A DNA stretch of 64,000 nt from assembly GCA_963712665.1 (NCBI GenBank), contig CAVQIV010000026.1, forward strand, positions 257,045-321,044, given 5' to 3'. Made by a program: the position numbers and the translations under genes. This DNA is from Thermoanaerobaculaceae bacterium. Lineage in GTDB: Bacteria; Acidobacteriota; Thermoanaerobaculia; Multivoradales; UBA5704. This document shows, in pieces, positions 2,018 through 56,730 of this stretch; position 1 is the first letter of the stretch; each line of letters opens with the position of its first letter. The notes beneath the pieces were generated by a model. The model was not told where the DNA came from, made no database searches, and worked only from the letters and a program-made list of their open reading frames with translations.

Positions 2018-2046
2018 GCGGCAGGAACAGGATCTGAGAAGTACCG

Positions 2047-2823
2047 TCAGCTTTCACTCGCCTCCAACCTCTGGATGAACTCCGGATCGAGCCCCGCCGC
2101 TTCCCGTCCCTCGCGATGAAAGGTCCGGCCCCGGGCCTTGACCGGGCGCAGGGGCCAGGTGAGGTTGGCCTGGAAGGCGTCCCAGGCGGATTGATCCTCT
2201 CCCTTGAAGACCTGGAGCCAGGTCCAACCGAAGCGGACGTGCTCGATTTCGTCGAGGTGGACGCGATCGATCACCGCCGCCGTCTTCGAGTCCCCTGCCC
2301 GGCGCGCGGCCTCGGCGTATTCCTCGGTGTGATCGAGGTTGGCGTTCTCGAAGGTGAGGGACATGGCACAGAGGAAGCGCAAGGGGGTGGTGATGGTCCC
2401 GACCTTGCCCCAGAAGTAGCCGTTCACCGCATAGTCGCCGAAGCGGGCGCCCGCGTCCTCCACCCGTGCGATGTACATGCGGGTATGGCGCTGCTCGTCC
2501 AGGAGGATGCGCACGAGACCGCGGCGGAATTCCGGCGGAGCCTCAGGAAAGGCGAGCAGGGCCCAGGCGAACAGCTCGGCAGCCTGAAGCTCATGGTTGG
2601 CCAGAGCATGCAGGATACGCCGACGCTGCGCCGGATCGTGCATGCCTTCGAGGGATGGCACCGCGATCCGCGTCCGGAACCGCAGGTTGGATGGCCGGCC
2701 CGGCTCCTCGGCCCGGAAGGGAGGGCCGGGATCGGCGTCCGTCAGCTCGCCGGCAGGAGGCGCGAGCTTGACGTCGAGATTCTCGGCAAGGAGGACGGTG
2801 CGGGCGAAGTCGCGGATCTCCAT
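2047..2823 (-). CDS. ferritin-like domain protein (DUF455-like)
   Basis: ORF 2047..2823. Di-iron-type helices HELQAAELFAWALL ... LLDEQRHTRMY ... LDEIEHVRFG. The family call is from memory of DUF455 motifs. Confidence 0.6.
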   Translation of the reverse strand: MEIRDFARTVLLAENLDVKLAPPAGELTDADPGPPFRAEEPGRPSNLRFRTRIAVPSLEGMHDPAQRRRILHALANHELQAAELFAWALLAFPEAPPEFRRGLVRILLDEQRHTRMYIARVEDAGARFGDYAVNGYFWGKVGTITTPLRFLCAMSLTFENANLDHTEEYAEAARRAGDSKTAAVIDRVHLDEIEHVRFGWTWLQVFKGEDQSAWDAFQANLTWPLRPVKARGRTFHREGREAAGLDPEFIQRLEASES

Positions 2824-2957
2824 CGTCAGGTGAACGTTACCGCACTTATCCTGACTGCACCACGCGAAACGGATGGGCCGCGACGGTGAACCTCTGGCGG
2901 CCCCAACCGTCCATGCTCTACCTCTCTCCCGTGTTCGTCCCCCTGAAGTTAGTTAGA

Positions 2958-3335
2958 GCAGAAAACTTCTGGGAAAGATCTTCTCAGCCTCTGAAAGGCC
3001 TTTTAGCCTCAGAAATACTCAATTCGACCTGAGAAAAGACCTTTTGGATCTGGAAAAGGTCTTTCAATCCAGTAATGCTCCGTTGTCTCGGGCAAAGACC
3101 TTTTGGGCAAGCAAAAGATCTTTCTCTCTCGGGGAAAGACTTTTCAAGATCAGAAAAGGTCTTTTCCCCGAGGCAGAGACTCAATCCTCGGGGAAAAGAC
3201 CTTTCGCCTGGGCGTGGAAGTCATTCCGCAGAGAATAGACCTATTGCCACAGGGGAAATGCCTTTTCCGGGTTCTCGACCGCAAATCCGGTCCCGAAAGG
3301 TCTTTTGGGCCGAGAGAAAGGTCTTTTGACCGCGG
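2958..3335. repeat. array of about 19 short palindromic units (core AAAGRYCTTT, e.g. GAAAAGACCTTTT / GAAAAGGTCTTTT / AAAGGCCTTT) spaced 18-23 bp apart, mean about 20 bp
   Basis: Hand-located cores centred near 2965, 2978, 2999, 3017, 3039, 3058, 3077, 3098, 3118, 3139, 3159, 3180, 3198, 3221, 3239, 3261, 3287, 3301 and 3321. The region is markedly AT-richer than its flanks. All six frames carry only short repetitive ORFs. Confidence 0.85.
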
Positions 3336-3615
3336 CACTCCAAGGGTGCCGTTTCTCAGCTTTCCAGGAGGAGGGCGATCCTCCGAAGGCGGGTATGGCA
3401 TCGAACCGGGGCAACAGCCTAGCCCCAGGGTGCTCCTCGGGCGCTTATACGCCACAGCGCATTGCTTTGACGAGGATTCTGAAGAGGTGTAAGCTCGCTC
3501 TAGCCTCAAGAATTCGAGGAGATTAGCTCGATGTCCGCCGCCAAGTCACGATGCTTTTGGACGAAGGGAAGTGACGATATGGCAGTCGAAAGGGTTTGGT
3601 GCTTAGGCGGCGAAG

Positions 3616-4191
3616 GTGGCGAATAGGTTAGGCGCGATAAGGAGCTGTCTGCCAGTGGATAATCAAGCCGGTCCATCGGACGAGCTTCGGCTGTCAAGGG
3701 AGGAGCGTATAGCCGCCATCGCTGTTCCTTTGACGGCTGCTATCGCTCTTCTTGTAGTAGCCGCAGTGCGCATGCCGCGCTCCGACCTGGGAGATTGGGC
3801 TAGCGCTCTTGGCGATATCGGCACATTTATTGTCTCTCTGCTTGGCGCAGCCGCAGCAGTCTGGTGGTGGAAGCATCGTGGCTCTGCCTCCCCCCGCTTG
3901 AAGGTGACTCAGTCTGTCAACATACTACCTTCCACAGGAAGCTACATTCCGCTGTACATTACTGCACACTTGGAAAATGTCGGTGAAGTGCCTGTCGTTC
4001 TCACGAAGTGGTGCTTGTGGGCTACCGACATGCTCCCTCTTCCGCCTACTATCGATGGCCTTCTGAATGCCGATCCGGATCGGTCATGCCGAGACTATCG
4101 GTTGCCGTGGAAGGCAGCTGCAGGCGCAGAATTTGAGATGCCTGAACAGGAAGCACCACGTGTGCGGCCTGGTGAAACCCAGAGGATATAG
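3616..4191 (+). CDS. hypothetical membrane protein (two predicted TM helices plus a C-terminal soluble domain); may continue to about 4326 through frame breaks
   Basis: ORF 3616..4191 with hydrophobic stretches IAAIAVPLTAAIALLVVAAV and IGTFIVSLLGAAAAVWWW. Protein-like reading continues downstream in other frames (REIYSFFPHDSLAKGGGRGWTSITIIELEKEV, stop near 4326). Low-GC segment. Confidence 0.4.
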   Translation: MANRLGAIRSCLPVDNQAGPSDELRLSREERIAAIAVPLTAAIALLVVAAVRMPRSDLGDWASALGDIGTFIVSLLGAAAAVWWWKHRGSASPRLKVTQSVNILPSTGSYIPLYITAHLENVGEVPVVLTKWCLWATDMLPLPPTIDGLLNADPDRSCRDYRLPWKAAAGAEFEMPEQEAPRVRPGETQRI

Positions 4192-4331
4192 GCGGTACTT
4201 TGCGAGTGCCGGCTGACGCGCGGTTGGTCCAGGGAGATCTACTCCTTTTTCCCACATGACAGCCTTGCCAAGGGTGGTGGCCGTGGCTGGACAAGCATCA
4301 CTATTATAGAACTAGAGAAGGAGGTTTAAGC

Positions 4332-4427
4332 ATGGAGCGAGAACGTGAAGGAGACAGAGATCGTCGTCCATTCGATCAACCCGATCGCTATCCAGATGCA
4401 GATCTTCCCTACGACCTCCCGGGCTGA
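4332..4427 (+). CDS. small ORF (31 aa, MEREREGDRDRRPFDQPDRYPDADLPYDLPG) with a strong Shine-Dalgarno; could extend to 4521 with a +1 shift
   Basis: AAGGAGG lies 7 nt upstream of ATG 4332. Not in the ORF track because it is under 60 aa. No recognisable family. Confidence 0.25.
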   Translation: MEREREGDRDRRPFDQPDRYPDADLPYDLPG

Positions 4428-4728
4428 TCCGGATGTCAAAAAAAGAGACCTTCCTACGATCCTCCGCATCGCGATGAGCCGCCAGAGCGCGGTCGGAGAT
4501 GAATGGGTGATCATCGCCTAACCCGTGGGCCTCAACCGGAGCGCCGCCTCCTGGCCGCTGAGCAGCATCTCAGTCGGTGCCGGCCAGTGAGATACCACGG
4601 AGAATCAGGGCACATTGGAGCTTAAGGCAGGGCGAGCATCCGACGGCTCAACCGCGAGTGGGCCGCAGTGCTTCTCCGGAAAGAGAAAACACAATTCACA
4701 CTAACGGCCACAACTTCGGGAGGGTCCC

Positions 4729-4945
4729 ATGGAACTGAAGACTCCGCAGGCGCAAGACGTCAGGAAACAGCTCGTCTACACTCCGGGTGCGTTGTCCTCC
4801 TTCCGGGACCTGGTCCAGTTCCTCGAGGCCAGCGAGTACATGCTGGCCCAGCTCATGATGCAGAACAAGATCTGGGTCGGAAATCCACCTAAGAATCCCG
4901 GCGGCTCTGGTGAGATCGAGTTCGGTCTGATCCCTTACTGGGTCC
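4729..4945 (+). CDS. probable N-terminal part of the downstream metallophosphoesterase, separated from it by a frame break near 4930-4950
   Basis: ORF 4729..5064 reads protein-like up to ...EIEFGLIPYW. The frame of ORF 5091..6167 is already open and protein-like from about 4914 (IVIADYLDSHEVTKFLWNLLETLLPAQIDSTKYAALIAAVKGQGL) but has no start codon there. Confidence 0.4.
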
Positions 4946-5090
4946 ACAACCCGCCATCGTCATCGCTGATTACCTCGACAGCCATGAGGTCACCAAGTTC
5001 CTTTGGAACCTGCTCGAGACTCTGCTGCCGGCGCAGATCGACTCCACGAAATATGCCGCCCTGATCGCGGCCGTTAAGGGGCAGGGGCTG

Positions 5091-6167
5091 GTGACCGCGG
5101 ACGGCTCGATCTATGGCACGGCTACTTACGAGCAACTCGATCCGGGCTGGATCTGGGGAGCGATCAACTATCTCATTGTCAAGTACGCCGGTGGCCTGGC
5201 GCCTTTCAGCACGACCAGCGTCAGCCCCATTACGCTCACCGGCAGCTCTCCCGATCAGGTGGTCCTCGCCTTGGTCGGCGATTGGGGCACGGGAGTGTAC
5301 CCTGGGGGCGTGGCCACGGACGTCCTCCAGCAGATCACTGATCTGAGCCCGGACTACATCATCCACCTGGGAGACGTCTACTATTCCGGCACGGCCGGCG
5401 ATTTCCTTCCGCTGCACGAGGAGAAGAACAACTTCGTGAATCTCTGGCCGGTGTCGACGCCGTCCTTCACGCTCAACTCGAACCATGAGATGTACGCCGG
5501 CGCCAAGGGTTACTTCGGGGTCGCGCTCGCCAACAGCCGCTTCTCCAAGCAGAAGAAAACCAGCTATTTCGCCCTGCAATACGGCGGCTGGACGCTGCTG
5601 GGCCTGGACAGCGCATACTTTTCGACCTCACCGTTGTACATGCTCGGCTCCATCGGCGGCGCTATGGGAACCCAGGCGAAGTGGATCCAGAAGCTGGGGC
5701 TCTCTGCCCAGAACGTGATCGTGCTCAGCCATCACACCGGATTGACCTTCGACGGGTCCTCGGAGCTGAGCCTGTGGGGAGAGGTCAATGCCGCTCTCGG
5801 GGGCGATCCAGCGGCGTGGTACTGGGGGCATATCCACAACGGGATCGTCTACAAAACTCCAACGGTGACTGGCCGGAAGACCCTGGCCCGCTGCCTCGGG
5901 CATGGCGCCCTCCCCTTCGGCCAGGCTTGGGGTCTCGTCAACGCCCCCTACGTCTCGTACTACGCCAACACCTTGAATCCCAACGGTGGCGGCGTGCGGG
6001 TCTACAACGGCTTCGCCCTCTTGACCATCACCAAGCAGGGAACGGTGACGGAGGCGTTCTATCAGCAGGACACCGCGCAGCCCGTCTACACGAACAGCTA
6101 CAGCCTGCCCTCAAATCGCTCGGCCAAGCCGAGGAGGAGCCCCAGGGCCAGGACACGGAGGGGCTAG
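5091..6167 (+). CDS. calcineurin-like metallophosphoesterase
   Basis: ORF 5091..6167. Motifs GDWGTG, HLGDVYYSG, NSNHEMY, VLSHH, WGHIHNG. The last roughly 14 codons read into a degenerate copy of the 7973-8166 repeat. Confidence 0.8.
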   Translation: MTADGSIYGTATYEQLDPGWIWGAINYLIVKYAGGLAPFSTTSVSPITLTGSSPDQVVLALVGDWGTGVYPGGVATDVLQQITDLSPDYIIHLGDVYYSGTAGDFLPLHEEKNNFVNLWPVSTPSFTLNSNHEMYAGAKGYFGVALANSRFSKQKKTSYFALQYGGWTLLGLDSAYFSTSPLYMLGSIGGAMGTQAKWIQKLGLSAQNVIVLSHHTGLTFDGSSELSLWGEVNAALGGDPAAWYWGHIHNGIVYKTPTVTGRKTLARCLGHGALPFGQAWGLVNAPYVSYYANTLNPNGGGVRVYNGFALLTITKQGTVTEAFYQQDTAQPVYTNSYSLPSNRSAKPRRSPRARTRRG

Positions 6168-6301
6168 CCGGGATGGGGGGAGATGGACGTCTGGGGAACG
6201 TTGTTGCAGAGAGGCAGCAAATCTGGGGTAGAATCGGCGAAATTTCAGAGGAGGCCGTCATGCCCATTGGAAGCTTGTTGCTGCCCGGCGTTGCATCGGC
6301 T
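6128..6301. repeat. copy 1 of a duplicated divergent-promoter module (about 175-195 bp, roughly 85% identical by eye to 7973-8166)
   Basis: Shared strings include GAGGAGCCCCAGGGCCAGGACACGGAGG, GCAGAGAGGCAG, GGGTAGAATCGGCGAAA, AGGAGGCCGTCATGCCC and CTGCCCGGCGT. This copy carries a decayed version (ATG->ACG plus a stop) of the N-terminus of the minus-strand gene seen at 8050. Confidence 0.8.
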
Positions 6302-6817
6302 GTCGCGGTGTTCATCGTGAGTGCCCTCGTCCACATGGTTCTGAGGTATCACCGGGCCGACTTCAAGCGGCTCCCGGACGAGGATTCGGTCGCCGCGGCC
6401 GTGCGCAAGGCCGCCCCGTCTCCCGGCGTCTACTTCATCCCCTACTGCGCCGAGATGTCCCAGATGAAGGATCCCGCCTTTCGCAAGAAGTTCGAGGAGG
6501 GTCCGGTCGTAAGCCTCGTCGTCCGGCGCAACGGTCCGCCGGCCCTCGGCAAGGGCCTGGCGCAGTGGTTCCTGTTCTGCCTCCTGGTGAGCTTCGTCGT
6601 CGCCTATGTGGCGCGCCATACGCTCACCTTCGGAGCTCCTGGCCAGGCGGTGATGCGCCTCACCGGGACCGTCGCCTTCGCTGCCTACGCCTTCGGGTAC
6701 CTTCAGAATTCCATCTGGGAGGGAATCCCCTGGTCCAACGCGCTGCGCGGTCTCATCGACGCCGTGCTGTACGCCCTGACGACCGGGCTCGTGTTCCGCT
6801 GGCTCTGGCCGGCGTGA
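6260..6817 (+). CDS. conserved-looking hypothetical membrane protein (about 185 aa, 4 TM)
   Basis: ATG 6260 is in frame within ORF 5681..6817 and preceded by AGGAGG. Hydrophobic helices at the N-terminus, middle (WFLFCLLVSFVVAYV) and C-terminus. Confidence 0.6.
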   Translation: MPIGSLLLPGVASAVAVFIVSALVHMVLRYHRADFKRLPDEDSVAAAVRKAAPSPGVYFIPYCAEMSQMKDPAFRKKFEEGPVVSLVVRRNGPPALGKGLAQWFLFCLLVSFVVAYVARHTLTFGAPGQAVMRLTGTVAFAAYAFGYLQNSIWEGIPWSNALRGLIDAVLYALTTGLVFRWLWPA

Positions 6818-6848
6818 GGCGCGGCGGGCGGCGGGAATCCGCCAGCCG

Positions 6849-6971
6849 CTACAGTTCGTCGCCGGGCTCGGGAGGAGTATCAGGTACCTTGGCAAGCACG
6901 GCCAGGAACTTCTCCCGGCTCCCGCGTCGGGCTCTTTCCTCGAGGTAATCCACCGTCAGGAGGGCCGCCAT
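6849..6971 (-). CDS. small ORF (40 aa, MAALLTVDYLEERARRGSREKFLAVLAKVPDTPPEPGDEL), possible antitoxin-type fragment
   Basis: Its ATG lies 1 nt after the stop of the 70-aa gene upstream. Its C-terminal ...FLxxLxKVPDxxPExxDEL resembles tails of small TA-associated proteins (from memory). Not in the ORF track because it is under 60 aa. Confidence 0.3.
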   Translation of the reverse strand: MAALLTVDYLEERARRGSREKFLAVLAKVPDTPPEPGDEL

Positions 6972-6972
6972 C

Positions 6973-7185
6973 TCAGCCTCTCTCGGTTCGCCGCTGTTTG
7001 ATCTCGGAGATGAGATCTTCCAAAGTCATTCCGGCATAGATCTCCCTCCGATCCTCCGTATAATTTCCCGTGCCCGAAGTAAACTGGTTGATAAATCGAA
7101 CGGCGTTCGCGACTCCGAGCTCGCGGTACAGGAGGCGGATGGCTTCTTGGTTGATTTCAGCGAGAGGCTTCAATGGGAGTGTCAT
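6973..7185 (-). CDS. 70-aa protein translationally coupled downstream of a PIN toxin (putative cognate antitoxin/partner)
   Basis: ORF 6973..7185. ATGA overlap with the PIN gene stop. Low-GC cassette. Confidence 0.5.
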   Translation of the reverse strand: MTLPLKPLAEINQEAIRLLYRELGVANAVRFINQFTSGTGNYTEDRREIYAGMTLEDLISEIKQRRTERG

Positions 7186-7622
7186 AGTCCTAGCTCCACG
7201 ATTAGCTCCAAAGGAGATACCACCTTAGTTCCCTCAATCATCATGCTCTTGGCCTTGCGAAGGAGCTTGTCATCACAGGTGCAGAAGAAATCGGCTCCTG
7301 CTTCGATGGCTGATGCGAGATGAAGGGCATCCAAGGGTGATATTCCAAGATCTCGCAAATTGCCTGCCCGTTCGAGGACGGCTTCGGTTGCATCGATATA
7401 GCTCGTGGCCTTTGACAGCGCCTCGTAAGCGTGAGTGCTCCGTAGGGGATCTTGTATCCGTTCGATCTCAAACTGCAAGACCTCTGACGCAACCAACGTA
7501 ATCTGACCCTCGCTGCACTCTGTGAGGACTGCCAGGACCGCCTCCGCTTCGAGGTGGATCCGGGCATGCGACTTGATGTCCCAGGGACGCTCAAGGCTGC
7601 AGGTGTCAAGGTAGACCCTCAT
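7182..7622 (-). CDS. PIN-domain ribonuclease (VapC-like toxin)
   Basis: ORF 7182..7622. Acidic PIN residues in MRVYLDTC, SEVLQFEIE, DALHLASA and CTCDD. Confidence 0.85.
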   Translation of the reverse strand: MRVYLDTCSLERPWDIKSHARIHLEAEAVLAVLTECSEGQITLVASEVLQFEIERIQDPLRSTHAYEALSKATSYIDATEAVLERAGNLRDLGISPLDALHLASAIEAGADFFCTCDDKLLRKAKSMMIEGTKVVSPLELIVELGL

Positions 7623-8050
7623 GTCAGCGTGCCCCAGGCAACAGAAATCCTACCACTCCGCTTCGACAGCGAGCAAGTTCTCACCCCTGCCAGCGAGGTG
7701 ATCCCGTCGTCAGGAGGCCGGATCAGCCGCAGCCCTGCGGCGGCCACCAGGTTGAGCAGCACGAAGGCGAGGGCGGCGTTGAAGACGATCAGAGCCAGGG
7801 CAGTGTAGACAGCCCGGAAGCGCTGGAAGAGGCTCGAGAGGGTGGCTCTCTCGCCCGCCGGCGCCCACGGCCCGAGGAAGCTCGGGGCCAGGACCACGGT
7901 CCCCACGATCACCATCAGCCACTGGCGCTCGCCGAACCCTGGCGCGCCGATCCCCAACGCGTCCGCTCCCAGGCCGAGGAGGAGGAGCCCCAGGGCCAGG
8001 ACACGGAGGGTCCAGAGGAGGGGCTTGCCGGGATTGGAGGGGATGGACAT
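7619..8050 (-). CDS. hypothetical membrane protein, probably 3'-truncated by insertion of the PIN cassette
   Basis: ORF 7619..8050. N-terminal TM-rich part (LRVLALGLLLLGL, WLMVIVGTVVLAP, ALALIVFNAALAFVLLNLVAA). The last roughly 30 aa fall in the low-GC cassette and end in an ATGA overlap with the PIN start. Confidence 0.45.
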   Translation of the reverse strand: MSIPSNPGKPLLWTLRVLALGLLLLGLGADALGIGAPGFGERQWLMVIVGTVVLAPSFLGPWAPAGERATLSSLFQRFRAVYTALALIVFNAALAFVLLNLVAAAGLRLIRPPDDGITSLAGVRTCSLSKRSGRISVAWGTLT

Positions 8051-8166
8051 AGGGGAAACGTTATCGCAGAGAGGCAGAAATTTTTAGGGTAGAATCGGCG
8101 AAACTTTGTAGGACAGGAGGCCGTCATGCCCCTTGGAAGCCTGTCGCTGCCCGGCGTCGTTTCGGC
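7973..8166. repeat. copy 2 of the duplicated divergent-promoter module (see 6128-6301)
   Basis: Contains the intact start of gene 7619..8050. It also holds only the first roughly 14 codons (MPLGSLSLPGVVSA) of a paralogue of the 6260 membrane gene. Confidence 0.8.
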
Positions 8167-8192
8167 TGGGTACTTTGGATGGGGAGGTACTC

Positions 8193-8411
8193 TTGACTCG
8201 CATCCTTGAGGCTGTCTACGAAGATGGTGTGCTGAGGCCGCTGGAAGATCCAGGGCTGAAGGAGCACCAGCACGTCCTGCTCGAGATCCGGACCGAGCCA
8301 GAGGAGCATGCCTCATCAGCACTCGAGGCATGGCATCGGGTTTATGAGGGGCTGCCTGAAGACGATATCGCTGAGATCGAGGCCATCGCCCTGGATCGGA
8401 GCCATTTCTGA
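8193..8411 (+). CDS. DUF104/AF2212-like antitoxin family protein
   Basis: TTG 8193 is in frame in ORF 8133..8411 with GGAGG 5 nt upstream. N-terminus ILEAVYEDGVLRPLEDPGLKEHQHVLLEI matches the xxEAVYENGVLKPLE signature (from memory). Confidence 0.55.
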   Translation: MTRILEAVYEDGVLRPLEDPGLKEHQHVLLEIRTEPEEHASSALEAWHRVYEGLPEDDIAEIEAIALDRSHF

Positions 8412-8523
8412 TAACCTGATTGCCGCCACGGCTCTCGTGCATGGCCTGCAGCTCGTGACTGAAAATCCCTCCCATTTCAGCCGCATCCCCGATCTCGTCT
8501 TCGAGGGTTGGCGCTCCTCCTGA
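8404..8523 (+). pseudogene. C-terminal remnant of a PIN (VapC) toxin gene
   Basis: ORF 8308..8523 ends ...DNLIAATALVHGLQLVTENPSHFSRIPDLVFEGW, a typical VapC C-terminus. The N-terminal two thirds of a PIN domain are absent. Confidence 0.6.
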
Positions 8524-8550
8524 TCTTTGGGGCAAAATCGCCGCCGGCAC

Positions 8551-9519
8551 CTAGGCCCTCTCCATATAGCCGTTGCCGACGACTTTCAGCAAGACGCGGC
8601 CCACGGTGGGATCGGTACGCTCGTGGATCGGCTTGACCACGCATCCTTCCCGGACGTGGTCGGCGCCGGGGACGAGGCTGGGGCCTTCCGCCAACTCCAG
8701 GATGCGGTCGAGCTCGAATGGGACGGCCTCGGCGATCGTAGGCACCCAGGGGAGGCCGAAGGGGATCGATGCTTCACGAGCCTCCTGGGGGTCCTTCCAT
8801 TCGCTGCCGGCCAGGATATCGAAAGCGGCAAACCGGACCTGGCCCTTCGTCGTGCCGTACTTCAGGTCCTGGACCTGGCCGTAGACCTCGCCGTAGACGG
8901 TGACGCCCGGGTTGGCCGCCAGGAAGTCACGCAGCCCCTGGGTCTCGCGCAGCGCCCGCCACCAGAGGTTGTCGTCGGACTCCTTTTTCCACTCCGTGCG
9001 GGAGCCGCAGAAGAAGCCGCCCTCTTCCAGGTAGGTGAAGCGACCGTTCGCGCCGTGAACTTTCTCACTGACGAACACGGGTTCCCCTGGAATGAAAACG
9101 GTTGCATATCGACGCAAGCTATCAACATCGAACGACGGTCGATACCCGGGAGGCGGCTTGATCGATTCTCCTCCCGTGCTGAACGGCAGGGGTGGATCGT
9201 AGTGCGTCACCCCCAGCAACGGGGCCACGTCGTCGCCGATCGCCGATCCTTCGGGAGCTGGCACCAGCAATCCCATGCTGATGATCCCGCGGAGCCGGCG
9301 GACCTTGATCCTGCGGTGTCCGTCGAGGAAGGCGAACTCGGGCGTGTCGGGGACCACGGAATCCGGCGGAATGTAGGCGCCGATCTCGCGACCGGTCCAG
9401 TCCGCGGTGCGGACGCAGACGGTGTAGCCATCGAAGACGCGGACGACGGACAGCGAATCCGCGTTGGGATGGGGCTCCAGGTGAACGGGGACGACTTCGA
9501 CTCGGTGTGTGCTGTTCAT
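8551..9519 (-). CDS. ATP-dependent RNA ligase, DraRnl (DRB0094)/Rnl5-like: N-terminal tRNA-binding-type OB domain plus Rnl2-like nucleotidyltransferase domain
   Basis: ORF 8551..9540; ATG at 9519 has the better RBS spacing. HPNADSLSVVRV resembles the PheT/EMAP-type OB motif. SEKVHGANG matches ligase motif I (T4 Rnl2 EKIHGTN). Confidence 0.75.
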   Translation of the reverse strand: MNSTHRVEVVPVHLEPHPNADSLSVVRVFDGYTVCVRTADWTGREIGAYIPPDSVVPDTPEFAFLDGHRRIKVRRLRGIISMGLLVPAPEGSAIGDDVAPLLGVTHYDPPLPFSTGGESIKPPPGYRPSFDVDSLRRYATVFIPGEPVFVSEKVHGANGRFTYLEEGGFFCGSRTEWKKESDDNLWWRALRETQGLRDFLAANPGVTVYGEVYGQVQDLKYGTTKGQVRFAAFDILAGSEWKDPQEAREASIPFGLPWVPTIAEAVPFELDRILELAEGPSLVPGADHVREGCVVKPIHERTDPTVGRVLLKVVGNGYMERA

Positions 9520-9595
9520 GAATGGCTCCAATCCAGGCAATCCTCCCCCCGCCTGGGTTTTCGAAGTATACTACCTTGGATTCCTCGGAGTATCC

Positions 9596-9856
9596 ATGAG
9601 CCAGGTAGAAATGATTGAACGACAGATCGAGCAGCTCTCGCAGGAAGAGTTGGCCAGATTCCGAGAGTGGTTCGCGAGGTATGACGCGGAGGCTTGGGAC
9701 CAGCAGTTCGAACAAGACGTCCAGGCCGGTAAGCTCGACGCTCTCGCTGAACGTGCACTTCGGTCGGTTGGCTCTAGGCCGTTTTCCCCCTGCTCTTCCC
9801 CCGCCGCTTGCCAGGCTTCTCCTCATCGATCTCCTGCCAGAAATCCTCGTGGCTGA
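9596..9856 (+). CDS. small addiction-module-type protein; C-terminus probably replaced or overlapped by the convergent Phd gene
   Basis: ATG 9596 within ORF 9509..9856. MSQVEMIERQIEQLSQEELARFREWFARYDAEAWDQQFEQDVQAGKLDALAERALR resembles small TA-associated proteins. The last roughly 28 aa overlap 9774-10076 on the other strand and look non-native. Confidence 0.4.
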   Translation: MSQVEMIERQIEQLSQEELARFREWFARYDAEAWDQQFEQDVQAGKLDALAERALRSVGSRPFSPCSSPAACQASPHRSPARNPRG

Positions 9857-10076
9857 TTCCCTCTCCTTCGCGGATCTGCTGGCGCGAGGTCTCCAGGATA
9901 GCCCGCAAGCGAACCGAGTGGGCCAGGACCAGGCGTTCGAGCTCCTCGTCGTCCCGCACGGCCAGCAAGGCGGCGACCGCCTTGCCGTTGCGCGTGACGA
10001 CCACCAGCCCCTGTTCGCTCTCCTTCAGATAGGCGCTGAACTGGGCCTTGACTTCTGCGACCGAGGCGATCTTCAA
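9774..10076 (-). CDS. Phd/YefM-family antitoxin
   Basis: TTG 10076 is in frame in ORF 9774..10214 and overlaps the toxin stop (TTTGA). KIASVAEVKAQFSAYLKESEQGLVVVTRNGKAVAALLAV is a typical Phd/YefM N-terminus. Confidence 0.8.
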   Translation of the reverse strand: MKIASVAEVKAQFSAYLKESEQGLVVVTRNGKAVAALLAVRDDEELERLVLAHSVRLRAILETSRQQIREGEGISHEDFWQEIDEEKPGKRRGKSRGKTA

Positions 10077-10239
10077 AGCTCTACCTCCTCTCCGCCGATG
10101 ACCAGGCGATCCCGCTCCTTGACGCCGATCGCCAGGATGTACACCTTGTGGTTCTCCCGGTCGATCTCGTAGAAAGCCCGGAACCGATTGTCGGGACCGA
10201 ATCGCAGCTCCCATTGCGCCTCGAAGACGGCAGGTTGCT

Positions 10240-10337
10240 GCAGTGGCTTGCGGTTCCTGGTCTCAGCATCTGGCTCGAACAGCAACTGCTCCTGGAGGGT
10301 CTCGCGAATCAACGAGTAATGCTGCCGCTCGATGGCC
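10240..10337. repeat. direct repeat, copy 1 (98 bp; 97/98 identical to 10501-10598)
   Basis: GCAGTGGCTTGCGGTTCCTGGTCTCAGCATCTGGCTCGAACAGCAACTGCTCCTGGAGGGTCTCGCGAATCAACGAGTAATGCTGC(C/T)GCTCGATGGCC occurs twice at an offset of 261 bp. Confidence 0.95.
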
Positions 10338-10500
10338 GAAGGTGTGTTGATTTTTTTTTGTGTTGTTTAGGTGTTTTGTTTTTTGTTGTGTTGTTAGGTT
10401 GTATTTTTGTGGTTTTTTTGGTTGTTTTTGTAGTTAGTTTGGTATTGTTTGTTGGGATTGTTTTGTAGCTTTTATTGTGTTTTGTAGATGGTAGGTTGTT
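10338..10500. other. 163-nt G/T-rich tract with a single C (10469): hypermutated copy of toxin-gene sequence 10083-10239 plus about 14 nt of gene sequence 5' of the repeat
   Basis: Hand alignment of 10396-10500 to 10131-10239 is colinear with one 1-nt deletion. Every difference is plus-strand C->T or A->T, and all G and T are retained. Confidence 0.9.
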
Positions 10501-10598
10501 GCAGTGGCTTGCGGTTCCTGGTCTCAGCATCTGGCTCGAACAGCAACTGCTCCTGGAGGGTCTCGCGAATCAACGAGTAATGCTGCTGCTCGATGGCC
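10501..10598. repeat. direct repeat, copy 2 (see 10240-10337)
   Basis: See copy 1. Confidence 0.95.
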
Positions 10599-10761
10599 CG
10601 AAAGGTGCTGCTTGACTTCGGGCGCGTAGACCAGGGAGTAGGGTTGCCGCCTCACCATGGTGACCAGAATTGTGACTATCGAAGCTTTGCTTGTCAACCG
10701 CCCGACTGTGGAGGGCAAAATCGCGAGGGGGCCGCGTCGCGGCCCCCTCAATCCTCAGAAC

Positions 10762-13497
10762 CTAATACCGCACGATCGCCGACAGCACCAACGCCCGAGG
10801 GGGCGAGAGCTGGGTGGGCTGGCCGAAGGCCGGGTTGTTGGAAGGCTTCAGCAGCGGGTTGGGACCCGGGTTTGCAGGATCGAGCGGTGAGTTCAAGAGG
10901 TAGCGGTCGTCCACTTGTAGCGCCACCTGCTGGTTGAAGAGGTTGGTGATGCGCGCTTCGAGCTCCACTCCGGTGCGGCCGAAGCGCAGCTCGTAGGAGG
11001 TGAGCAGGTCGACGTTCAGCCAGTCTTCCATGCGCCGCGAGCCCGCAGGCTCCAGATACCGGAAGTAGCTGCTGGTTACGTTGGCCGACGGTTGCGCCCG
11101 GGCCTCCCAGGCGCCGCCGCTCTGGTAGCGGACGTAGGTGCCGACGCGCAGCCGGTTCATGGGCTCGATGGTGGCGAAGATCTTGGCGAGATGGGTGCGG
11201 TCGCCGCGCAGCAGGCCGTTCCTGTTGTCGGTGATCAGCACGCCCGGACCGTCCTGGAGGATGGAGGAGTTGTAGAAGAGAGAGTCGGCGTAGTCGATGT
11301 CCCAATTCCCCTTCAGGCGGCTCCAGGTGTAGCTGGCGTTCATCCAGAGGTGCATGAAGCGGTCGTTCGCGGGCCGGCGGTTGAGCTCCAGGGTGGCGGC
11401 CGTGTAGCGCCGGTAGGCGCCCGGGAGCTGGCCGACGTGGAAGGGACCGTTGCCGAGGCCGTCGGCGCTGATGTCCTCGAAGATGTTCTTGACGTTGCGG
11501 TACATCCCCCAGACCTCCGCCGACCAGATGTTGCCCAGGGGTCGGGCGTAGCCGACGAGGAATTCGTCGGTGAACATCGGATCGATCCCCTTGTCGATCG
11601 TCTTGGTCTGGGTATTGGCGGCCGGCACTTCGGAGATGAGGTTGCCGGCGGCGTCGAAGGTGGCCCGGGTGGTGAAGATGCGGGTCGGCGAGCCGGCGCG
11701 GGTCAAGGACTTGTTATCGGTGTTGAAGTAGCGGCCGGCGCTGGCGTACACCTTGTCGCCCCGCTGCGGATCGAGCACGTGGGAGATGCCGAGCCGCGGC
11801 TGGATCTCCTGACCCCAGTCGAAGGTGAGGATCTTCTTCTTCACCTTGGTGCCCGGCGTAGACCCCAGGGCCTCGCCGTAGTAGTCGTCCTTGTTGACCA
11901 GGAGACCGGCGGTGAGGGTGGTGCGCTCGCCCAGGGCCATCTGGTCCTGGAGGAAGGCGCCGTAGGTCTTGGCGCGGCCGGTGTGCGGCGGCTGGATGGA
12001 GTTGTAGGTGGCCGTGAACCGCTGAGTGGTGGCGCTCCAGGTGATGGCCCCCCAGCCGTTGCCCACCCGCCGCAGGACCTCCTCGTTCTGGTCGTAGTTG
12101 ATGCCGGCCCGGACGTCGTGCCTCGTCTCACCCAGGCTGACGAAGCGCTGCAGGCTGAGCCGCGCCTCGTCGCGCTTGAAGTCCTGGAAGTTGTTGAGGC
12201 TCGCGCCGCCCACGGTCTGGCCGGGAGCCGTGGCGCCACCGATGATGCGGTCCGGCGTGGTCGAGAACTGTCCCACCAGGTCCGGGCGGGCGGCGTTGAA
12301 GGCCGGCTTATAGCCGAGGTCGGTGATGGGGATGCCCGAGTTCTCCTCTTTGTTGTGGTTGAGCTTGAGCTCGACCAGGCTGTCCGCCGACAGGTTCCAG
12401 GTCCAGGCGACGGTGCCCAGCAGGTAGTCGGTCGAATCGTCGGTCGCCACGCTCGGGTGAGTGCTGACGCCGATACCCGAGTTCTTCGTCGTGGTGTCGC
12501 GCGAGCGCACGGCCGCGGCGATGAAGTGGGTCGAGGTCGGGTTGGCCGTCAGCTTGCCGAAGTACTCGTCGGTCTCCTCCTTGCGGTCCGGCACCGTGCC
12601 GAGGTTGTTGGTGCGGTCGAGGAGGGTCTCGCTGGGCTGGCCCGCGGAAGCGTAGAACCAGAAGCGGTCGCGCAGGATGGGCCCGCCGAGCGAGCCGGCC
12701 AGCAGGCTGCGTTCCAGGGTGTTCTGGAAGCTCGGGATCTTGCTGTCGGACACGAAGCTCTTCGATTGGTTTTCGCCCCGGAGCTGGCCGTGGAAGTCGT
12801 TGGTTCCCGAGCGGGTGATGGCGTTGACCACCATGCCGGCCGAGCGGCCGTATTCGGCGGAGATGCCGCCGCGCTTGATGCTCACCTCGGCGATGTCGAG
12901 CTCCGTGACGTTGGGCAGGATGTCCCCGTAGTGGGGGTTGGTGACGTTGATGCCGTCGATGAGATAGGTGTTGTCCATGCGCGCCGCGCCGGCGTTGGGC
13001 GCCAGGCGGCCGTTCTCGGAGACGCCGGGCGCGAGCTGGAAGAGCCCTTTGTAGGTGCGCGGCACGGGCAGGTCCTCGACCTTATCGCTGCTGTAGTTGA
13101 CCTGGATGTCGCTCGACTTGACGTCGATGATCGGCAGGGCTGCGGTGACGGTGATCTCCTCGGCGACGGACGGCTTGATCGCCAGCTCGACCTGGGTGTC
13201 GCGGTCGAGGGCGACGACGGCCGGCTGCTTGACGCTGCCCATGCCGGACAGCTCGGCCGTCACCTCGTACTCGCCGGGCGGCAGGCGCAGGATGCTGAAC
13301 GCGCCTTTGTCGTCCGTCACGGCCGTGCGGCCGGCGGGCAGGAGCGGACCCCTCGCCGTCACCGTGACGCCGGGTAGCGGCGCGCCGGCGGCGTCGTGGA
13401 CCGTGCCGGAGATCGAGCCGGTGACCTGCGCGAACGCGGCCCCGGCCGGGAAGATCAGGACGAGCAGACAGAGATAGAAGATCAACCTTCTGGACAT
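10762..13497 (-). CDS. TonB-dependent receptor-like outer-membrane protein with N-terminal carboxypeptidase-regulatory-like domain
   Basis: ORF 10762..13497 (911 aa). Signal peptide; CarboxypepD_reg motif SGTVHDAAGAPLPGVTVTA...DDKGAFSILRLPPGEYEV; plug and barrel; C-terminal aromatic residue (…AIVRY). Confidence 0.9.
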   Translation of the reverse strand: MSRRLIFYLCLLVLIFPAGAAFAQVTGSISGTVHDAAGAPLPGVTVTARGPLLPAGRTAVTDDKGAFSILRLPPGEYEVTAELSGMGSVKQPAVVALDRDTQVELAIKPSVAEEITVTAALPIIDVKSSDIQVNYSSDKVEDLPVPRTYKGLFQLAPGVSENGRLAPNAGAARMDNTYLIDGINVTNPHYGDILPNVTELDIAEVSIKRGGISAEYGRSAGMVVNAITRSGTNDFHGQLRGENQSKSFVSDSKIPSFQNTLERSLLAGSLGGPILRDRFWFYASAGQPSETLLDRTNNLGTVPDRKEETDEYFGKLTANPTSTHFIAAAVRSRDTTTKNSGIGVSTHPSVATDDSTDYLLGTVAWTWNLSADSLVELKLNHNKEENSGIPITDLGYKPAFNAARPDLVGQFSTTPDRIIGGATAPGQTVGGASLNNFQDFKRDEARLSLQRFVSLGETRHDVRAGINYDQNEEVLRRVGNGWGAITWSATTQRFTATYNSIQPPHTGRAKTYGAFLQDQMALGERTTLTAGLLVNKDDYYGEALGSTPGTKVKKKILTFDWGQEIQPRLGISHVLDPQRGDKVYASAGRYFNTDNKSLTRAGSPTRIFTTRATFDAAGNLISEVPAANTQTKTIDKGIDPMFTDEFLVGYARPLGNIWSAEVWGMYRNVKNIFEDISADGLGNGPFHVGQLPGAYRRYTAATLELNRRPANDRFMHLWMNASYTWSRLKGNWDIDYADSLFYNSSILQDGPGVLITDNRNGLLRGDRTHLAKIFATIEPMNRLRVGTYVRYQSGGAWEARAQPSANVTSSYFRYLEPAGSRRMEDWLNVDLLTSYELRFGRTGVELEARITNLFNQQVALQVDDRYLLNSPLDPANPGPNPLLKPSNNPAFGQPTQLSPPRALVLSAIVRY

Positions 13498-53000: not shown

Positions 53001-53519
53001 TCAACGCTCCAGCTCCTGGAAACCGATCCGTCGGGTCCCTCTCTTCGTCGGCTCCATCATCTGGCGAAGGGCGTCGAACACCACGGTGAACTGGCCGTCG
53101 TATTTCTTCTCCAGCTCGTCGAACCTCCGGACGAGGTCGGCTCGGGAGGTCATCTCCCGCCGGAGGCGGACGAAGGCCCGCATGATCTCGATGTTGACCC
53201 GCACCGCCCTCTCGCTGCGGAGGACGCTCGACAGCATGGCCACCCCCTGCTCGGTGAAGGCATAGGGCAGGAATCTGCGGCCGCCCCAACTTGAGGTTCC
53301 AAATTGGAACCTCAAGATTTCGACTTCCTCAGGAGTCAATTGGAACATAAAGTCAATAGGAAAGCGGTCCAGGTTACGCTTCATGGCCTTGATGAGGTTC
53401 TTGGTCTCCACTCCGTAGAGAGCGGCGATGTCCTTGTCCAGCATGACCCTCTCCCCCCGCACGACCAGGATCGCGTGCTCGATCCTCTCCGCGGGCAGCA
53501 ACGCCTGAGTCTCATCCAT
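53001..53519 (-). CDS. ORF6N (KilA-N-related) domain protein
   Basis: ATG 53519 in ORF 53001..53612. [39 protein letters not shown]...[25 protein letters not shown]. Lower-GC cassette. Confidence 0.85.
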
Positions 53520-53542
53520 GGCAGGCCCCCTCCCTGGGGCGA

Positions 53543-53567
53543 TTGAGGTACCAGATTGGCACCTCAA
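53543..53567. promoter_or_regulatory. palindrome (c) TTGAGGTACCAGATTGGCACCTCAA, 24 nt upstream of the ORF6N start (candidate operator)
   Basis: Read directly. Near-identical to palindrome (d). Confidence 0.5.
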
Positions 53568-53726
53568 AGCTGGAGACCATCTCCAGCAGGGGCCGCGATG
53601 GGCTCTCCCCATCTATATAAACGGAAAATCCTTCGCTCATCGCTCAACTATTTTCGCCGGAGAGGGATTTCGGGCCCGGCTGACCGTCCAGCTCATCCTT
53701 TGAGGCTACAAAATTGCCCCCTCCAA

Positions 53727-54722: not shown

Positions 54723-55838
54723 TCAGGCCGCCTTCTCTTCTTCCCGGACCGCCTCGGGATACTGCTCGAACAGGCGCATCCACTTGCTGGTCTTCTTGTA
54801 GTGGTCGATGCGGCGCTTGCCCACCGTCGGGTACCAGGCGAAGTCGTGGTAGAAGTACGAGCCGAATACGAAGAAGTAGACGAGCGGCGTGCGGAACAGC
54901 AGCTTCTGGATCCCTTTGAGCGGCCCGAACCACACCAGGTCGCCGAAGCGGGAGACGGCGTTGTCCCCTACCGAGAAGTGGAAGTTCCACTTCGAGACGT
55001 CCTCGCCCACCACCTCGATGTCCCGCGGATCGCCCACGCCCAGGCCGGCGTCATGGGCCAGCCGGATGTAGGGGATCGACATGGGATCGAAGCCCATCAC
55101 CTTGGCCGCCACGGCGTCGATGGCCACCTGGTCGCCCGAGGCCATCATGAAGTCCTTCTCGACCGGGATCATCGTCCGCGGCCCCGGGCCGTTGCCGCAG
55201 GTCGTGCCGTCCATCACCGCGAAGAGGCCGGAGTGGATCTCCTTCTGGATGGTCAGGAGGTCCACCAGCGTCTCGTGGATGTAGGAGTGGGTGTAGTGCC
55301 GGCGGGTGTTGAGCAGGCCGCCGAAGGCGTTTTTCATGGCGCCCGTGGTGGTGGTGTAGATGTGGCACTTCACCGTCGGCAGGTGGACGATGTTCTTGCC
55401 GAGGAAGAACTCGGGGATGGTGATTCCCTCGGGGTAGATCTTCGGCAGCACCAGCATCTTCCCCTTGGGCTGGTAGGTGATCCACTTGAGGTCGTCCGCG
55501 AAGCAGTTGTAGCGCACGGGCACGCCGTACTTGTCCAGCACCGGCAGGTAGCGGTTGAGCCGCTCGCCCTTCTTGGGATCGGTGACGACGGTGTTGTTCT
55601 GCACGCAGACCTGGTCCGTGTACCCGTCGGCGCGCAGCTTCTGGATGGTCCCCTCGAGCTGCCAGGGGGTGGTATTGGCCCCCGGGAACGGGAAGTGCCA
55701 GGAGATGTTGTCCTTGAGGATCGTGGTGGCGCCCGGCGCGAGATAGCGCTCAACCTCCGCCAGCTCCATGGTGCGCCCCACGTCCGCGAGGACGTTCTCG
55801 GGGTTGGTCTTCAAGACGGCGACACGCGCTTTGGCCAT
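54723..55838 (-). CDS. DUF362 domain-containing protein
   Basis: ATG 55838 in ORF 54723..55913. VAVLKTNPENV...ILKDNISW...DGTTCGNGPGP. C-terminal hydrophobic tail. Confidence 0.85.
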   Translation of the reverse strand: MAKARVAVLKTNPENVLADVGRTMELAEVERYLAPGATTILKDNISWHFPFPGANTTPWQLEGTIQKLRADGYTDQVCVQNNTVVTDPKKGERLNRYLPVLDKYGVPVRYNCFADDLKWITYQPKGKMLVLPKIYPEGITIPEFFLGKNIVHLPTVKCHIYTTTTGAMKNAFGGLLNTRRHYTHSYIHETLVDLLTIQKEIHSGLFAVMDGTTCGNGPGPRTMIPVEKDFMMASGDQVAIDAVAAKVMGFDPMSIPYIRLAHDAGLGVGDPRDIEVVGEDVSKWNFHFSVGDNAVSRFGDLVWFGPLKGIQKLLFRTPLVYFFVFGSYFYHDFAWYPTVGKRRIDHYKKTSKWMRLFEQYPEAVREEEKAA

Positions 55839-55939
55839 GAACAGGGCTCCGGATCGATGGATGATTGCCGCGCCGCGGCGACGCGGGACTGACATTATAG
55901 CCCCCTCATTCAAGTCTCGTGCCCTACCGGGGAGGCTCC

Positions 55940-56268
55940 GCCCTCGCGAATTCTCGTCCCGCCCTCGCGAATTCTGGGTGCGCCCTCGCGAGTTTTCTTC
56001 GCGCCCTCGCGAGTTTCATATGGAAATTCGCGAGTTATATATGGGCCCTCGCGAGGGCGTTACGAGAACTCGTGAGGGCCGGTCCGCCCCTCGCGGGTTC
56101 TATATGAAAACTCGCGGATTACATATGGGCCCTCGCCAGGGCGCTACGAGAATTCGCGAGGGCGCGAAGAAAACTCGCGAGGGCCGGACGAAAACTCGCG
56201 AGGGCGCGGCGAGAATTCGCCGGGGGGCGGACGAAATTCGCGAGGGGGGGCGGCTATACTCGCCAGCC
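55940..56268. repeat. 16-unit tandem array with exact 21-bp phasing of a palindromic core (C)TCGCGAG
   Basis: T of TCG at 55944, 55965, 55986, 56007, 56028, 56049, 56070, 56091, 56112, 56133, 56154, 56175, 56196, 56217 and 56238 (all spaced 21), then 56260 (spaced 22). Units 1-4 read GCCCTCGCGA(A/G)TT; units 11-15 are the reverse-complement form (A/G)AA(A/T)TCGCGAGGGC; unit 6 is the full 14-bp palindrome GCCCTCGCGAGGGC (56045-58). Confidence 0.95.
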
Positions 56269-56271
56269 GTC

Positions 56272-56730
56272 ATGCGAGCACGCTGGCAGCCTCGGGTGGC
56301 CCTCATCCTGGTGGCGGTCTACCTGCTGATCGCGATTCCGGTGGGGGTGCGCAAGACCTTCCTCCTCCTGCGGGCGTCGGCGAAGACGGTGGGCGAACCG
56401 GTCAAGGCCTTGCGTCCGCGGATCTTCGGCCGGGGGTACGTGGCCGCGATCGAGGAGATCCGGCGCGCGATCCCCGAGGACGAGCCCTACCTGCTGAGCG
56501 AGCTAGACGAGAGGGACTCCCGGCTCTGGGTGCGCTTCGATCTCCTGCCGCGCCGCGCCATCTTCTTGCGCAGCGGGGGATCGCCCGAGGAGGGATTCGA
56601 CTGCTGGCGGGAGCAGGTCCGCTGGGAGGTGGTGGCGACGGGCATCAACCGGCCGCCCCTGTTGCGGGAGCGGCCCGTCACGGTGCCGCCGGGCTGCCCG
56701 CCGGCGCCCTGGCGGGAGCGGCAGCGGTGA
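56272..56730 (+). CDS. hypothetical N-terminally membrane-anchored protein; start could lie upstream inside the repeat array (in-frame ATG at 56020)
   Basis: ATG 56272 is in frame in ORF 55768..56730. MRARWQPRVALILVAVYLLIAIPVGV is a signal-anchor. Confidence 0.5.
   Translation: MRARWQPRVALILVAVYLLIAIPVGVRKTFLLLRASAKTVGEPVKALRPRIFGRGYVAAIEEIRRAIPEDEPYLLSELDERDSRLWVRFDLLPRRAIFLRSGGSPEEGFDCWREQVRWEVVATGINRPPLLRERPVTVPPGCPPAPWRERQR

Follow-up and report, generated by a model that had tools for sequence, protein, structure and literature searches.

This report concerns a 21-bp tandem array at positions 55940 to 56248 of a 64,000-nucleotide stretch of chromosome from a Thermoanaerobaculaceae bacterium (contig CAVQIV010000026.1); we refer to the whole stretch as the window. 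We conclude that the array is probably one copy of a lineage-specific, noncoding, interspersed mosaic repeat family carried by a genus-level clade of Thermoanaerobaculia, and that the family resembles in its behavior bacterial interspersed mosaic elements (BIMEs), mycobacterial interspersed repetitive units (MIRUs) or miniature inverted-repeat transposable elements (MITEs). In family members, a forward block leads through a palindromic junction unit into a reverse block, and the arrays change by whole units between orthologous loci. An original prediction, made from the sequence of the window alone, had drawn attention to the array as sixteen phased palindromes lying between two divergent operons. 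We found no description of the motif, or of repeats in this lineage, in the searchable literature, and the family is apparently undescribed in what is a poorly studied, uncultured soil lineage.

The array contains 15 head-to-tail units with no phase slip. Its palindromic core, TCGCGA, is exact in 10 of the 15 units and has one or two mismatches in the other five. Based on the arms that flank the core, we distinguish four types of unit: F units read GCCC-TCGCGA-RTT, R units are the reverse complement of F units, G units have GC arms on both sides, and a units have AT arms on both sides. In this notation, the layout is F F F F a G R F a G R R R R R. Units 1 to 4 (55940 to 56023) form an F block on the + strand, reading GCCC-TCGCGA-(A/G)TT with the GC arm outward to the left, and the same block starts arrays at loci L234, L249, L314, L336 and L339. 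Units 11 to 15 (ending at 56248, in a block counted from 56150) form an R block on the - strand, with unit sequences AA(A/T/C)-TCGCGA-GGG(C/G) and the GC arm outward to the right. Units 6 and 10 are of type G, the one at 56045 being the perfect 14-mer GCCCTCGCGAGGGC and the one at 56129 carrying one core mismatch, and units 5 and 9 are of type a. Direct inspection of the sequence also reveals an A-tract in every unit, and thus one per 21 bp.

These observations bear out much of the original prediction: the 21-bp periodicity from 55940 without slippage, the opposite polarity of the four left and five right units, and the presence of both halves in units 6 and 10. Its count of sixteen palindromes has to be revised. 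The octamer CTCGCGAG is exact in only five units, the conserved core being the shorter TCGCGA, and what was counted as a sixteenth unit (56255, TATACTCGCCAGCCGTCATG) is in fact the -10 box of the downstream gene with its short leader, both conserved. Array-free relatives align with the window from 56249 exactly, and the right edge of the element is set accordingly at 56248.

The center of the array is a tandem-duplicated, 84-bp module of four units. Copy 1 (56003 to 56086; F-a-G-R) has the spacers CATATGG/TATATGG, GTTACGA and CGGTCCG, and is 90.5% identical to a module in array L234 of the metagenome-assembled genome (MAG) BP_60. Copy 2 (56087 to 56170) is an old duplicate of copy 1; the two match at 77% of positions by direct count, and Tandem Repeats Finder reports 84% matches. 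The similarity to BP_60 is about that of flanking genes (87-90%), so no excess conservation of the module can be claimed. The whole array, spacers included, is an imperfect palindrome of 300 bp, in which the arms at 55941-56015 and 56151-56225 are 84% complementary.

Allowing at most one mismatch, TCGCGA-N15-TCGCGA occurs nine times in the window, always inside the array, whereas shuffled sequences are expected to contain 0.73 occurrences and none of 100 shuffles reached nine. The sequence is also supported by an independent short-read assembly (Logan ERR11593391), which agrees with the window from 56177 through the last units, with one mismatch (57765) over 3,398 bp, and whose contig breaks inside the array.

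To identify further copies, a two-unit pattern, GCCCTCGCGARTT-N8-GCCCTCGCGA, was scanned exhaustively over 185,579 species genomes, with one genome per species. The scan found 21 loci, and 20 of these reside in five Thermoanaerobaculia/Acidobacteriota MAGs (BP_60, SMAG_U9264, SMAG_U11742, SMAG_U3534 and SMAG_U3379), 12 of them in BP_60; the remaining locus, in a planctomycete, is probably a chance match. A looser scan added three loci in BP_60, which thus has at least 15 arrays on at least 12 contigs, and ten further family loci were found in soil metagenomes. The pattern had no loci in viral contigs, plasmids or phages. Because orthologous genes of BP_60 and the window are about 87-90% identical, the carriers form roughly a genus-level group. 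A more generic scan, for three TCGCGA cores at 21-bp spacing, had mixed arrays from many phyla among the matches listed; it is biased by ascertainment, since any 21-bp minisatellite containing TCGCGA qualifies, and we did not use it as evidence of function.

The copies share more than the pattern used to find them. In a logo of 99 oriented units, the 13-bp block AAT-TCGCGA-GGGC is conserved, and the AAT positions, which played no part in the selection of units, have 1.2-1.4 bits, in comparison with 0.1-0.8 bits in the spacer. The spacer itself measures 6-8 bp and is semivariable, with the recurrent types GYTACGA, CGGWCCG, GCAACGA and CATATG. Phase is largely retained: among 29 arrays, 182 of 193 core-to-core distances are 21, 42 or 63 bp, and slips of 20, 41 and 83 bp are each one base under a multiple of 21. 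The sub-modules CATATG/TATATGG and GGGC-GYTACGA-GAAT are common to the window and BP_60 and appear in either orientation. The original prediction had pointed out ATATG strings in the spacers after units 4, 5, 8 and 9 as -10-like; the strings are there, but they belong to one of these family sub-modules, which occurs elsewhere in both orientations, and they do not form a local -10 box.

Polarity is likewise a property of the family. Of the 20 arrays with both F and R units, 17 have the F block on the left (binomial p = 0.003), as in the layouts FFFFaGRGRRR, FFFGRRGRRRRRR, FFFGGRRGRRRRR, FGRRR and FGRRRRRRRRRRa. Because an F-to-R order is unchanged by reverse complementation, with the GC arm outward at both ends, this preference is a genuine shared property and does not depend on the strand on which an array happens to be read. 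The original prediction was right to single out the polarity switch as the informative feature.

All arrays of the family are intergenic, and their neighbors are mutually unrelated: ruvB, a thiolase gene, an OPT transporter gene, an alanine-racemase-like gene, and genes for Uma2, NYN, TIR, HD-CE, baeRF and DUF433 proteins, among others. Adjacent gene ends within 400 bp are 3' ends in 22 cases and 5' ends in 8 (p = 0.016), and four arrays are flanked by convergent genes and take up the space between them. Operators would not be expected to show such a bias; it is what tolerated or selfish intergenic repeats, or 3'-end elements, should show. In BP_60 and SMAG_U9264, arrays L234, L249, L289, L313, L323 and L324 adjoin accessory or defense-type genes (Uma2 nuclease, NYN, TIR_2, HD-CE, baeRF release-factor-like, DUF433 and ADP-ribosylglycohydrolase), and arrays may mark variable regions.

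Three pairs of loci permit comparison of copies. L315 and L332 are flanked on both sides by 390 bp of 100% identical sequence, and only a clean indel of 42 bp, or two units, distinguishes them, although this could be a difference between assemblers. L314 (in BP_60) and L336, whose flanks are about 92% identical, both run from F to R, but their 13 and 12 units, respectively, are ordered differently inside the array. A gene flanking L325 and its orthologue beside L306 are 77% identical. Copies can therefore persist at a locus while their units are gained, lost and shuffled.

These properties could be explained by a common bipolar founder of about 60-100 bp, approximately F-G-R, that was copied to many intergenic sites; we propose such a founder because polarity and sub-modules are common to the copies. 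Each copy would then have grown, shrunk and been shuffled locally, in whole units, by replication slippage or unequal recombination. The 13-bp block would be the recognition site of a putative protein that copies or binds the element, since the block is so sharply conserved.

Several observations weigh against this explanation. No transposase, REP-associated tyrosine transposase (RAYT) or other copying machinery lies beside any of the 20 arrays whose neighbors were checked. Nor do these arrays adjoin any recurrent DNA-binding gene, the dedicated partner for which the original prediction had suggested a check. Sharp, conserved termini are lacking, in that arrays fade outward into degenerate units. 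Target-site duplications, sought as repeated flanks of 2-10 bp, were not seen at the window array, L249, L314 or L318, and a clean empty site, conserved on either flank, was not obtained. Occupancy of L314 and L336 in two genomes, together with the orthologous flank of L325 and L306, indicates that copies can be old residents, which also fits a function for the host. The strong difference in conservation between 13-mer and spacer suggests that selection is still at work; if the element were purely selfish or neutral, a binding protein would have to be invoked to account for it. Finally, the window holds only one copy in 64 kb.

At the locus in the window, the element lies between two genes with promoters of their own. 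To its left is a divergent DUF362 gene (54723 to 55838, - strand; Pfam PF04015, E = 2e-22), whose third-codon-position GC content (GC3) is 0.95 and whose product is 90-96% identical in amino acids to its best relatives, an affinity that assigns the window to Thermoanaerobaculia (Acidobacteriota). Its native -10-like element (55893 to 55901, - strand) lies outside the repeat, reading CATTATAGC on the + strand and TATAAT on the - strand. To the right is a gene for a 152-amino-acid membrane protein (56272 to 56730, + strand; GC3 0.93), which begins an operon. Its native promoter elements, also outside the repeat, occupy 56255 to 56274 on the + strand: a -10 box, TATACT (56255-56260), an 11-nucleotide leader and the ATG at 56272. 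The sequence GGCGGCTATA(T)ACTCGCCAGCCGTCATG is kept in L327 and L328, which have no array. Exact-sequence look-ups of the DUF362 protein and of a 474-amino-acid protein gave no match.

Comparison of orthologous intergenic regions had been proposed with the original prediction; here, it reveals that the array is absent from this locus in relatives, while at the loci described above it reveals variation in the number and order of units. In nine close relatives, the array is always missing upstream of the DUF362 gene, the -10-like (C)ATTATA is retained in most, and the gene beyond that element is a different one each time; similarly, no 21-bp TCGCGA array was found near DUF362 orthologues in 80 loci compared. 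On the right side, relatives at 94.5%, 87.6% and 87% nucleotide identity lack the array and retain the membrane-protein operon and its -10 box, with a different upstream gene in each. Because both flanks are kept without the array and the neighboring gene differs from relative to relative, the array marks a synteny breakpoint between two older promoters. For the same reason, these relatives do not supply a clean empty site of the sort by which insertion of a MITE is recognized. The element at this locus is most likely a passenger; it places some 355 bp between two native promoters and need not regulate them.

Upstream of the DUF362 gene there seems to be a hotspot where repeats insert and rearrangements occur, given that relatives carry other, unrelated repeats there: a cluster of small hairpins of the GGGGATGGCCTCGTCCCC type (L005, about 2300-2750), a 33-bp perfect inverted repeat beginning GGTCCAGATCCTTCGCTGCGCTCAGGATGACAA (L026, about 5700-5900) and a further inverted repeat (L002, about 5700-5900).

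An alternative that we examined is that the array is coding. One open reading frame, 55768..56730, is open through the whole array and in frame with the membrane-protein gene, and it contains an ATG at 56020, as the original prediction had noted. Translated from 55768 or 56020, the array would add a heptad repeat, (P/T/I)RE(F/G)xx, to the N terminus of the membrane protein, and an automatic gene call on a Logan contig (L200) indeed runs the gene into the array. However, GC content at first, second and third codon positions is uniformly 0.62-0.65 in all six frames of the array, in contrast to GC3 values of 0.91-0.95 in flanking genes. Moreover, 103 homologues of the membrane protein are nearly all 145-165 amino acids long, most align over 88-100% of the query with a start equivalent to 56272, and none has the heptad extension. 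The -10 box and leader just upstream of 56272 are kept in array-free relatives, and other copies of the family lie between convergent genes, where an N-terminal extension is impossible. The frame stays open simply through repetition of a 21-bp unit without stop codons in a genome of high GC content. The array is therefore noncoding, and the coding explanation, to which we assign virtually no probability, is refuted; the preference of the original prediction for a DNA-level function was correct. In the gene call mentioned above, positions 2845-3396 of L200 (Logan ERR11593391), equivalent to window positions 56179-56730, are annotated as a partial gene of 183 amino acids that extends upstream through the array to the contig end. 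The exact 152-amino-acid product of the window is not among the proteins listed by a homology search, and the same over-extension may be the reason. Public annotations of this gene probably carry a spurious N-terminal repeat.

The original prediction also likened the array to iterons, to parC/sopC-type centromeres and to cooperative operators, that is, to a site specific to this locus and perhaps controlling both divergent operons. The period of two helical turns, the palindromic core and the position between divergent promoters would all suit such a site, and phage partition sites (PMC7157519) and viral loci provide examples of short repeats in opposed clusters. We nonetheless consider this explanation very improbable and largely refuted, since at least 30 unrelated intergenic loci, most of them beside gene 3' ends, have the same units in the same layout, and neither the array in the window nor the other copies checked have a rep, par or regulator gene in their vicinity. 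In addition, the array is missing here in the nearest relatives, though the -10 regions of both promoters persist, and the window is ordinary chromosome. It is quite unlikely, although less so, that the element acts as a hairpin in RNA or single-stranded DNA, with F and R blocks pairing to make a bidirectional terminator or a stabilizer of mRNA 3' ends, the role classically assigned to REP/BIME sequences. The whole array folds at -222.9 kcal/mol (z = -13.6), array L318, between convergent genes, folds at z = -6.9, and the a-type module resembles a terminator hairpin with a T-rich tail (56006-56034); the bias toward gene 3' ends is also as such a role would predict. Against this, F spacers have as many mismatches to R spacers of their own array (4.94 of 9) as to those of other arrays (4.86), so no compensatory signal is present, and the giant hairpin of the whole array results from the conserved blocks alone. 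The mostly one-orientation arrays L306 and L315 fold no better than shuffles (z = -1.9 to -2.7), pairing does not account for the preference for F-to-R over R-to-F order, and the array in the window is upstream of both divergent promoters and so is probably not transcribed. A scan of the array found no consensus sigma-70 promoter, and Rfam 15 yielded no match at the gathering score in the window, the only match by E-value being a sub-threshold one to the signal recognition particle RNA, a long-hairpin look-alike (35 bits, compared with a threshold of 60).

The main alternative to a dispersed repeat is an architectural role for the host, although we regard it as rather unlikely. In this explanation, the phased 13-bp blocks would be putative binding sites of a chromosomal protein (nucleoid-associated, insulator-like or transposase-derived) that coats the helix on one face, advancing from the two ends to the junction, and organization or insulation of DNA would be the reason for which arrays are retained. 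Conservation of the block relative to the spacer is consistent with this role, as are the retention of phase in about 95% of intervals at two helical turns, the conserved polarity, the occupation of orthologous loci in different genomes and the A-tract found once per 21 bp. Conversely, no candidate protein or gene linkage is apparent at the arrays checked, arrays are gained and lost between close relatives with unit number and order free to change, and phase slips of -1 are tolerated. Because the family is found in a handful of genomes only, it cannot serve a core function. A further idea, which we advance only tentatively and consider doubtful, is that bipolar arrays are dedicated binding platforms, on which a putative protein reads AAT-TCGCGA-GGGC and polymerizes along one helix face from both outer ends toward the junction. 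If true, the arrays would represent a new kind of architectural or insulator element of the chromosome, or else the trace left by a transposition system with at least five strictly phased transposase sites per end. A bipolar CTCGCGA array in Metallococcus carri and other 21-bp TCGCGA arrays in several phyla hint that the class may be wider than the clade, although the scan that found them required TCGCGA at 21-bp spacing and its ascertainment was uncontrolled.

The array in M. carri (Actinomycetota; L163, 3676-3920) is an independent, bipolar 21-bp array with eight direct units of CCTCGCGAAACGTCACTAGTT, a short center and three inverted units. Its arms are 76% complementary and it starts immediately after a stop codon; the core, period and layout match those of the family, and the rest of the unit differs. 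Two other Thermoanaerobaculia MAGs have arrays that may represent distant sub-families: L238 (7029-7433), with 20 units of AAGC-[GT]CGCGA-GGGT-CAAAACG, and L089 (3443-3700), with 11-12 units of the near-palindrome GTGTTG-TCGCGA-TTACAC. MAGs of Prevotella and other Bacteroidales contain sets of exactly three TCGCGA palindromes, spaced by 21 bp and flanked symmetrically by AT-rich sequence, such as ATTTTCGCGAAAAT and AATTCTCGCGAGAATT (L099, 6238-6290; L171, 2895-2950; L093, 6039-6090; L245, 2026-2080; L174, 6239-6290). These look like tripartite operators and are unrelated to the acidobacterial family.

Members of a family of high-GC viral contigs (L355, 825-1100; L385, 70-345; L400, 916-1190; and about ten more from IMG/VR) carry two opposed clusters about 211 bp apart, each with about five TGTCGCGA (or TCGCGACA) repeats at a spacing of about 10.5 bp. 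These clusters resemble the 8-bp repeats of parS-L and parS-R in actinophage parABS systems (PMC7157519). Three TCGCGA cores at 21-bp spacing were detected in 80 viral contigs, compared with 26 for the control ACGCGT; this phage family explains part of the excess, and the comparison is not decisive. Similarity searches against plasmids and phages gave nothing usable.

Elsewhere, the window contains the genes of an ordinary chromosome, including those for a PMT_2/TPR glycosyltransferase, a DegT aminotransferase, pdxA, pta, a TonB-dependent receptor and two-component systems, and a survey of its genes found no mobile-element genes near the array. An ORF6N/Rha-type gene, resembling phage antirepressors, is located at 53001-53612, just beyond an LPG_synthase_TM gene, and a block of lower GC content (0.60-0.62) at about 2000-12000 includes genes for an RNA ligase with a PHA02142 OB-fold, a metallophosphatase and DUF455; both may have been acquired horizontally. 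A T/G-rich patch at 10340-10463, in a genome whose GC content is about 68%, has overlapping tandem periods of 28, 21, 12 and 9 bp (for example, AGGTGTGTTGATTTTTTGTTGTGTTGTT). This intergenic patch lies downstream of a TonB-dependent receptor gene (10762-13497, - strand) and is C/A-rich on the strand of the next gene.

Recognition of the family removes a false lead, because phased palindromes between divergent operons resemble an operator, an origin or a centromere and here are none of these. It also has practical consequences. Such families break short-read assemblies, as in the Logan contig that ends inside the array; they mislead gene callers, since a stop-free unit produces a spurious heptad extension of the downstream gene; and they may mark points of rearrangement. 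If a cognate protein exists, the conserved 13-mer offers a direct handle for finding it.

The closest known repeats include repetitive extragenic palindromes (REPs), which are arranged as bacterial interspersed mosaic elements (PMC2817692). Like REP/BIME sequences of enterobacteria and pseudomonads, the family is dispersed, strictly intergenic, lineage-restricted and variable in unit number; it is a mosaic of one short unit in both orientations with few linker types, and it is enriched at gene 3' ends and between convergent genes. In a BIME, however, REP orientation alternates from unit to unit, whereas here direct tandem blocks are separated by one polarity switch (FFFGRRGRRRRRR, FGRRRRRRRRRR). 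A REP is an imperfect palindrome of 20-40 bp that forms its own hairpin, whereas F and R units are asymmetric, only G units are palindromic, and blocks of a single orientation fold no better than shuffles (z = -1.3 to -1.9). The family also lacks a GTAG or CGTC tag conserved in a fixed place. Copies probably number in the tens per genome (at least 15 in BP_60 by strict patterns, and one in the 64-kb window), whereas REP/BIME sequences exceed 100, and no RAYT (Y1 transposase) gene, of the kind that REPs flank, was found next to the 20 checked arrays or in the window.

As in the MIRU class of variable-number tandem repeats in Mycobacterium, the same tandem unit occurs at many intergenic loci (at least 30), and copy number changes by whole units, as illustrated by the 42-bp indel, with its possible origin in assembly, and by the 13 versus 12 units at orthologous loci. 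MIRU units are 46-100 bp long, have one orientation and lie inside operons, where they overlap stop and start codons; by contrast, our family has 21-bp units in bipolar arrays that are mostly at operon ends. MITEs, Correia elements (CREE) and the pneumococcal BOX element, boxA-(boxB)n-boxC, share with it an overall palindromic form, a length of 60-330 bp, a noncoding nature and dispersal. BOX is similar also in being modular, with internal tandem modules that vary in number as boxB does, and the shared polarity of our arrays implies descent from a founder. Unlike MITEs, the family has no sharp-ended terminal inverted repeat, no target-site duplication and no cognate transposase that we found, and the whole element is periodic, lacking unique ends.

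Ends of multisite transposons, such as the TnsB sites of Tn7 and attL/attR of Mu, contain sites of about 22 bp that are direct within an end and inverted between ends. Units of the family are of a comparable size (about 21-22 bp), asymmetric, direct within an arm and inverted between arms. The Tn7 and Mu ends have two to four irregularly spaced sites, a terminal dinucleotide and 5-bp duplications, none of which is seen in the family, and family arrays have no internal genes. F-only and R-only arrays that share a BP_60 contig are 48-72 kb apart, and on this ground we rejected the possibility that they are the two ends of one larger element. A likeness of the spacer ACGAAAA(T/C) to Tn3-family inverted repeats or MuA sites was treated as coincidence, given a misfit in register and the low complexity of the string.

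The 22-bp iterons of R6K and pPS10 and the parC site of R1 are phased short repeats with a period of about two helical turns. The family shares such phasing with these iterons and centromere repeats and with parS-L/parS-R of actinophages (PMC7157519), some of which are also arranged in two blocks. Those systems are confined to a single locus, linked to rep or par genes and located on replicons, whereas the family is multilocus, chromosomal and linked to no gene. Operator arrays differ as well, in that 22 of the 30 adjacent gene ends are 3' ends and the array is absent from the orthologous promoters of the locus in the window. The layout, in which direct blocks of one asymmetric unit converge on a palindromic junction, thus differs from those of REP/BIME, MIRU, BOX and classical MITE sequences. 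The family behaves like REP/BIME sequences, MIRUs or modular MITEs but departs from each in its defining features, and it is an interspersed intergenic repeat that stands outside any named family.

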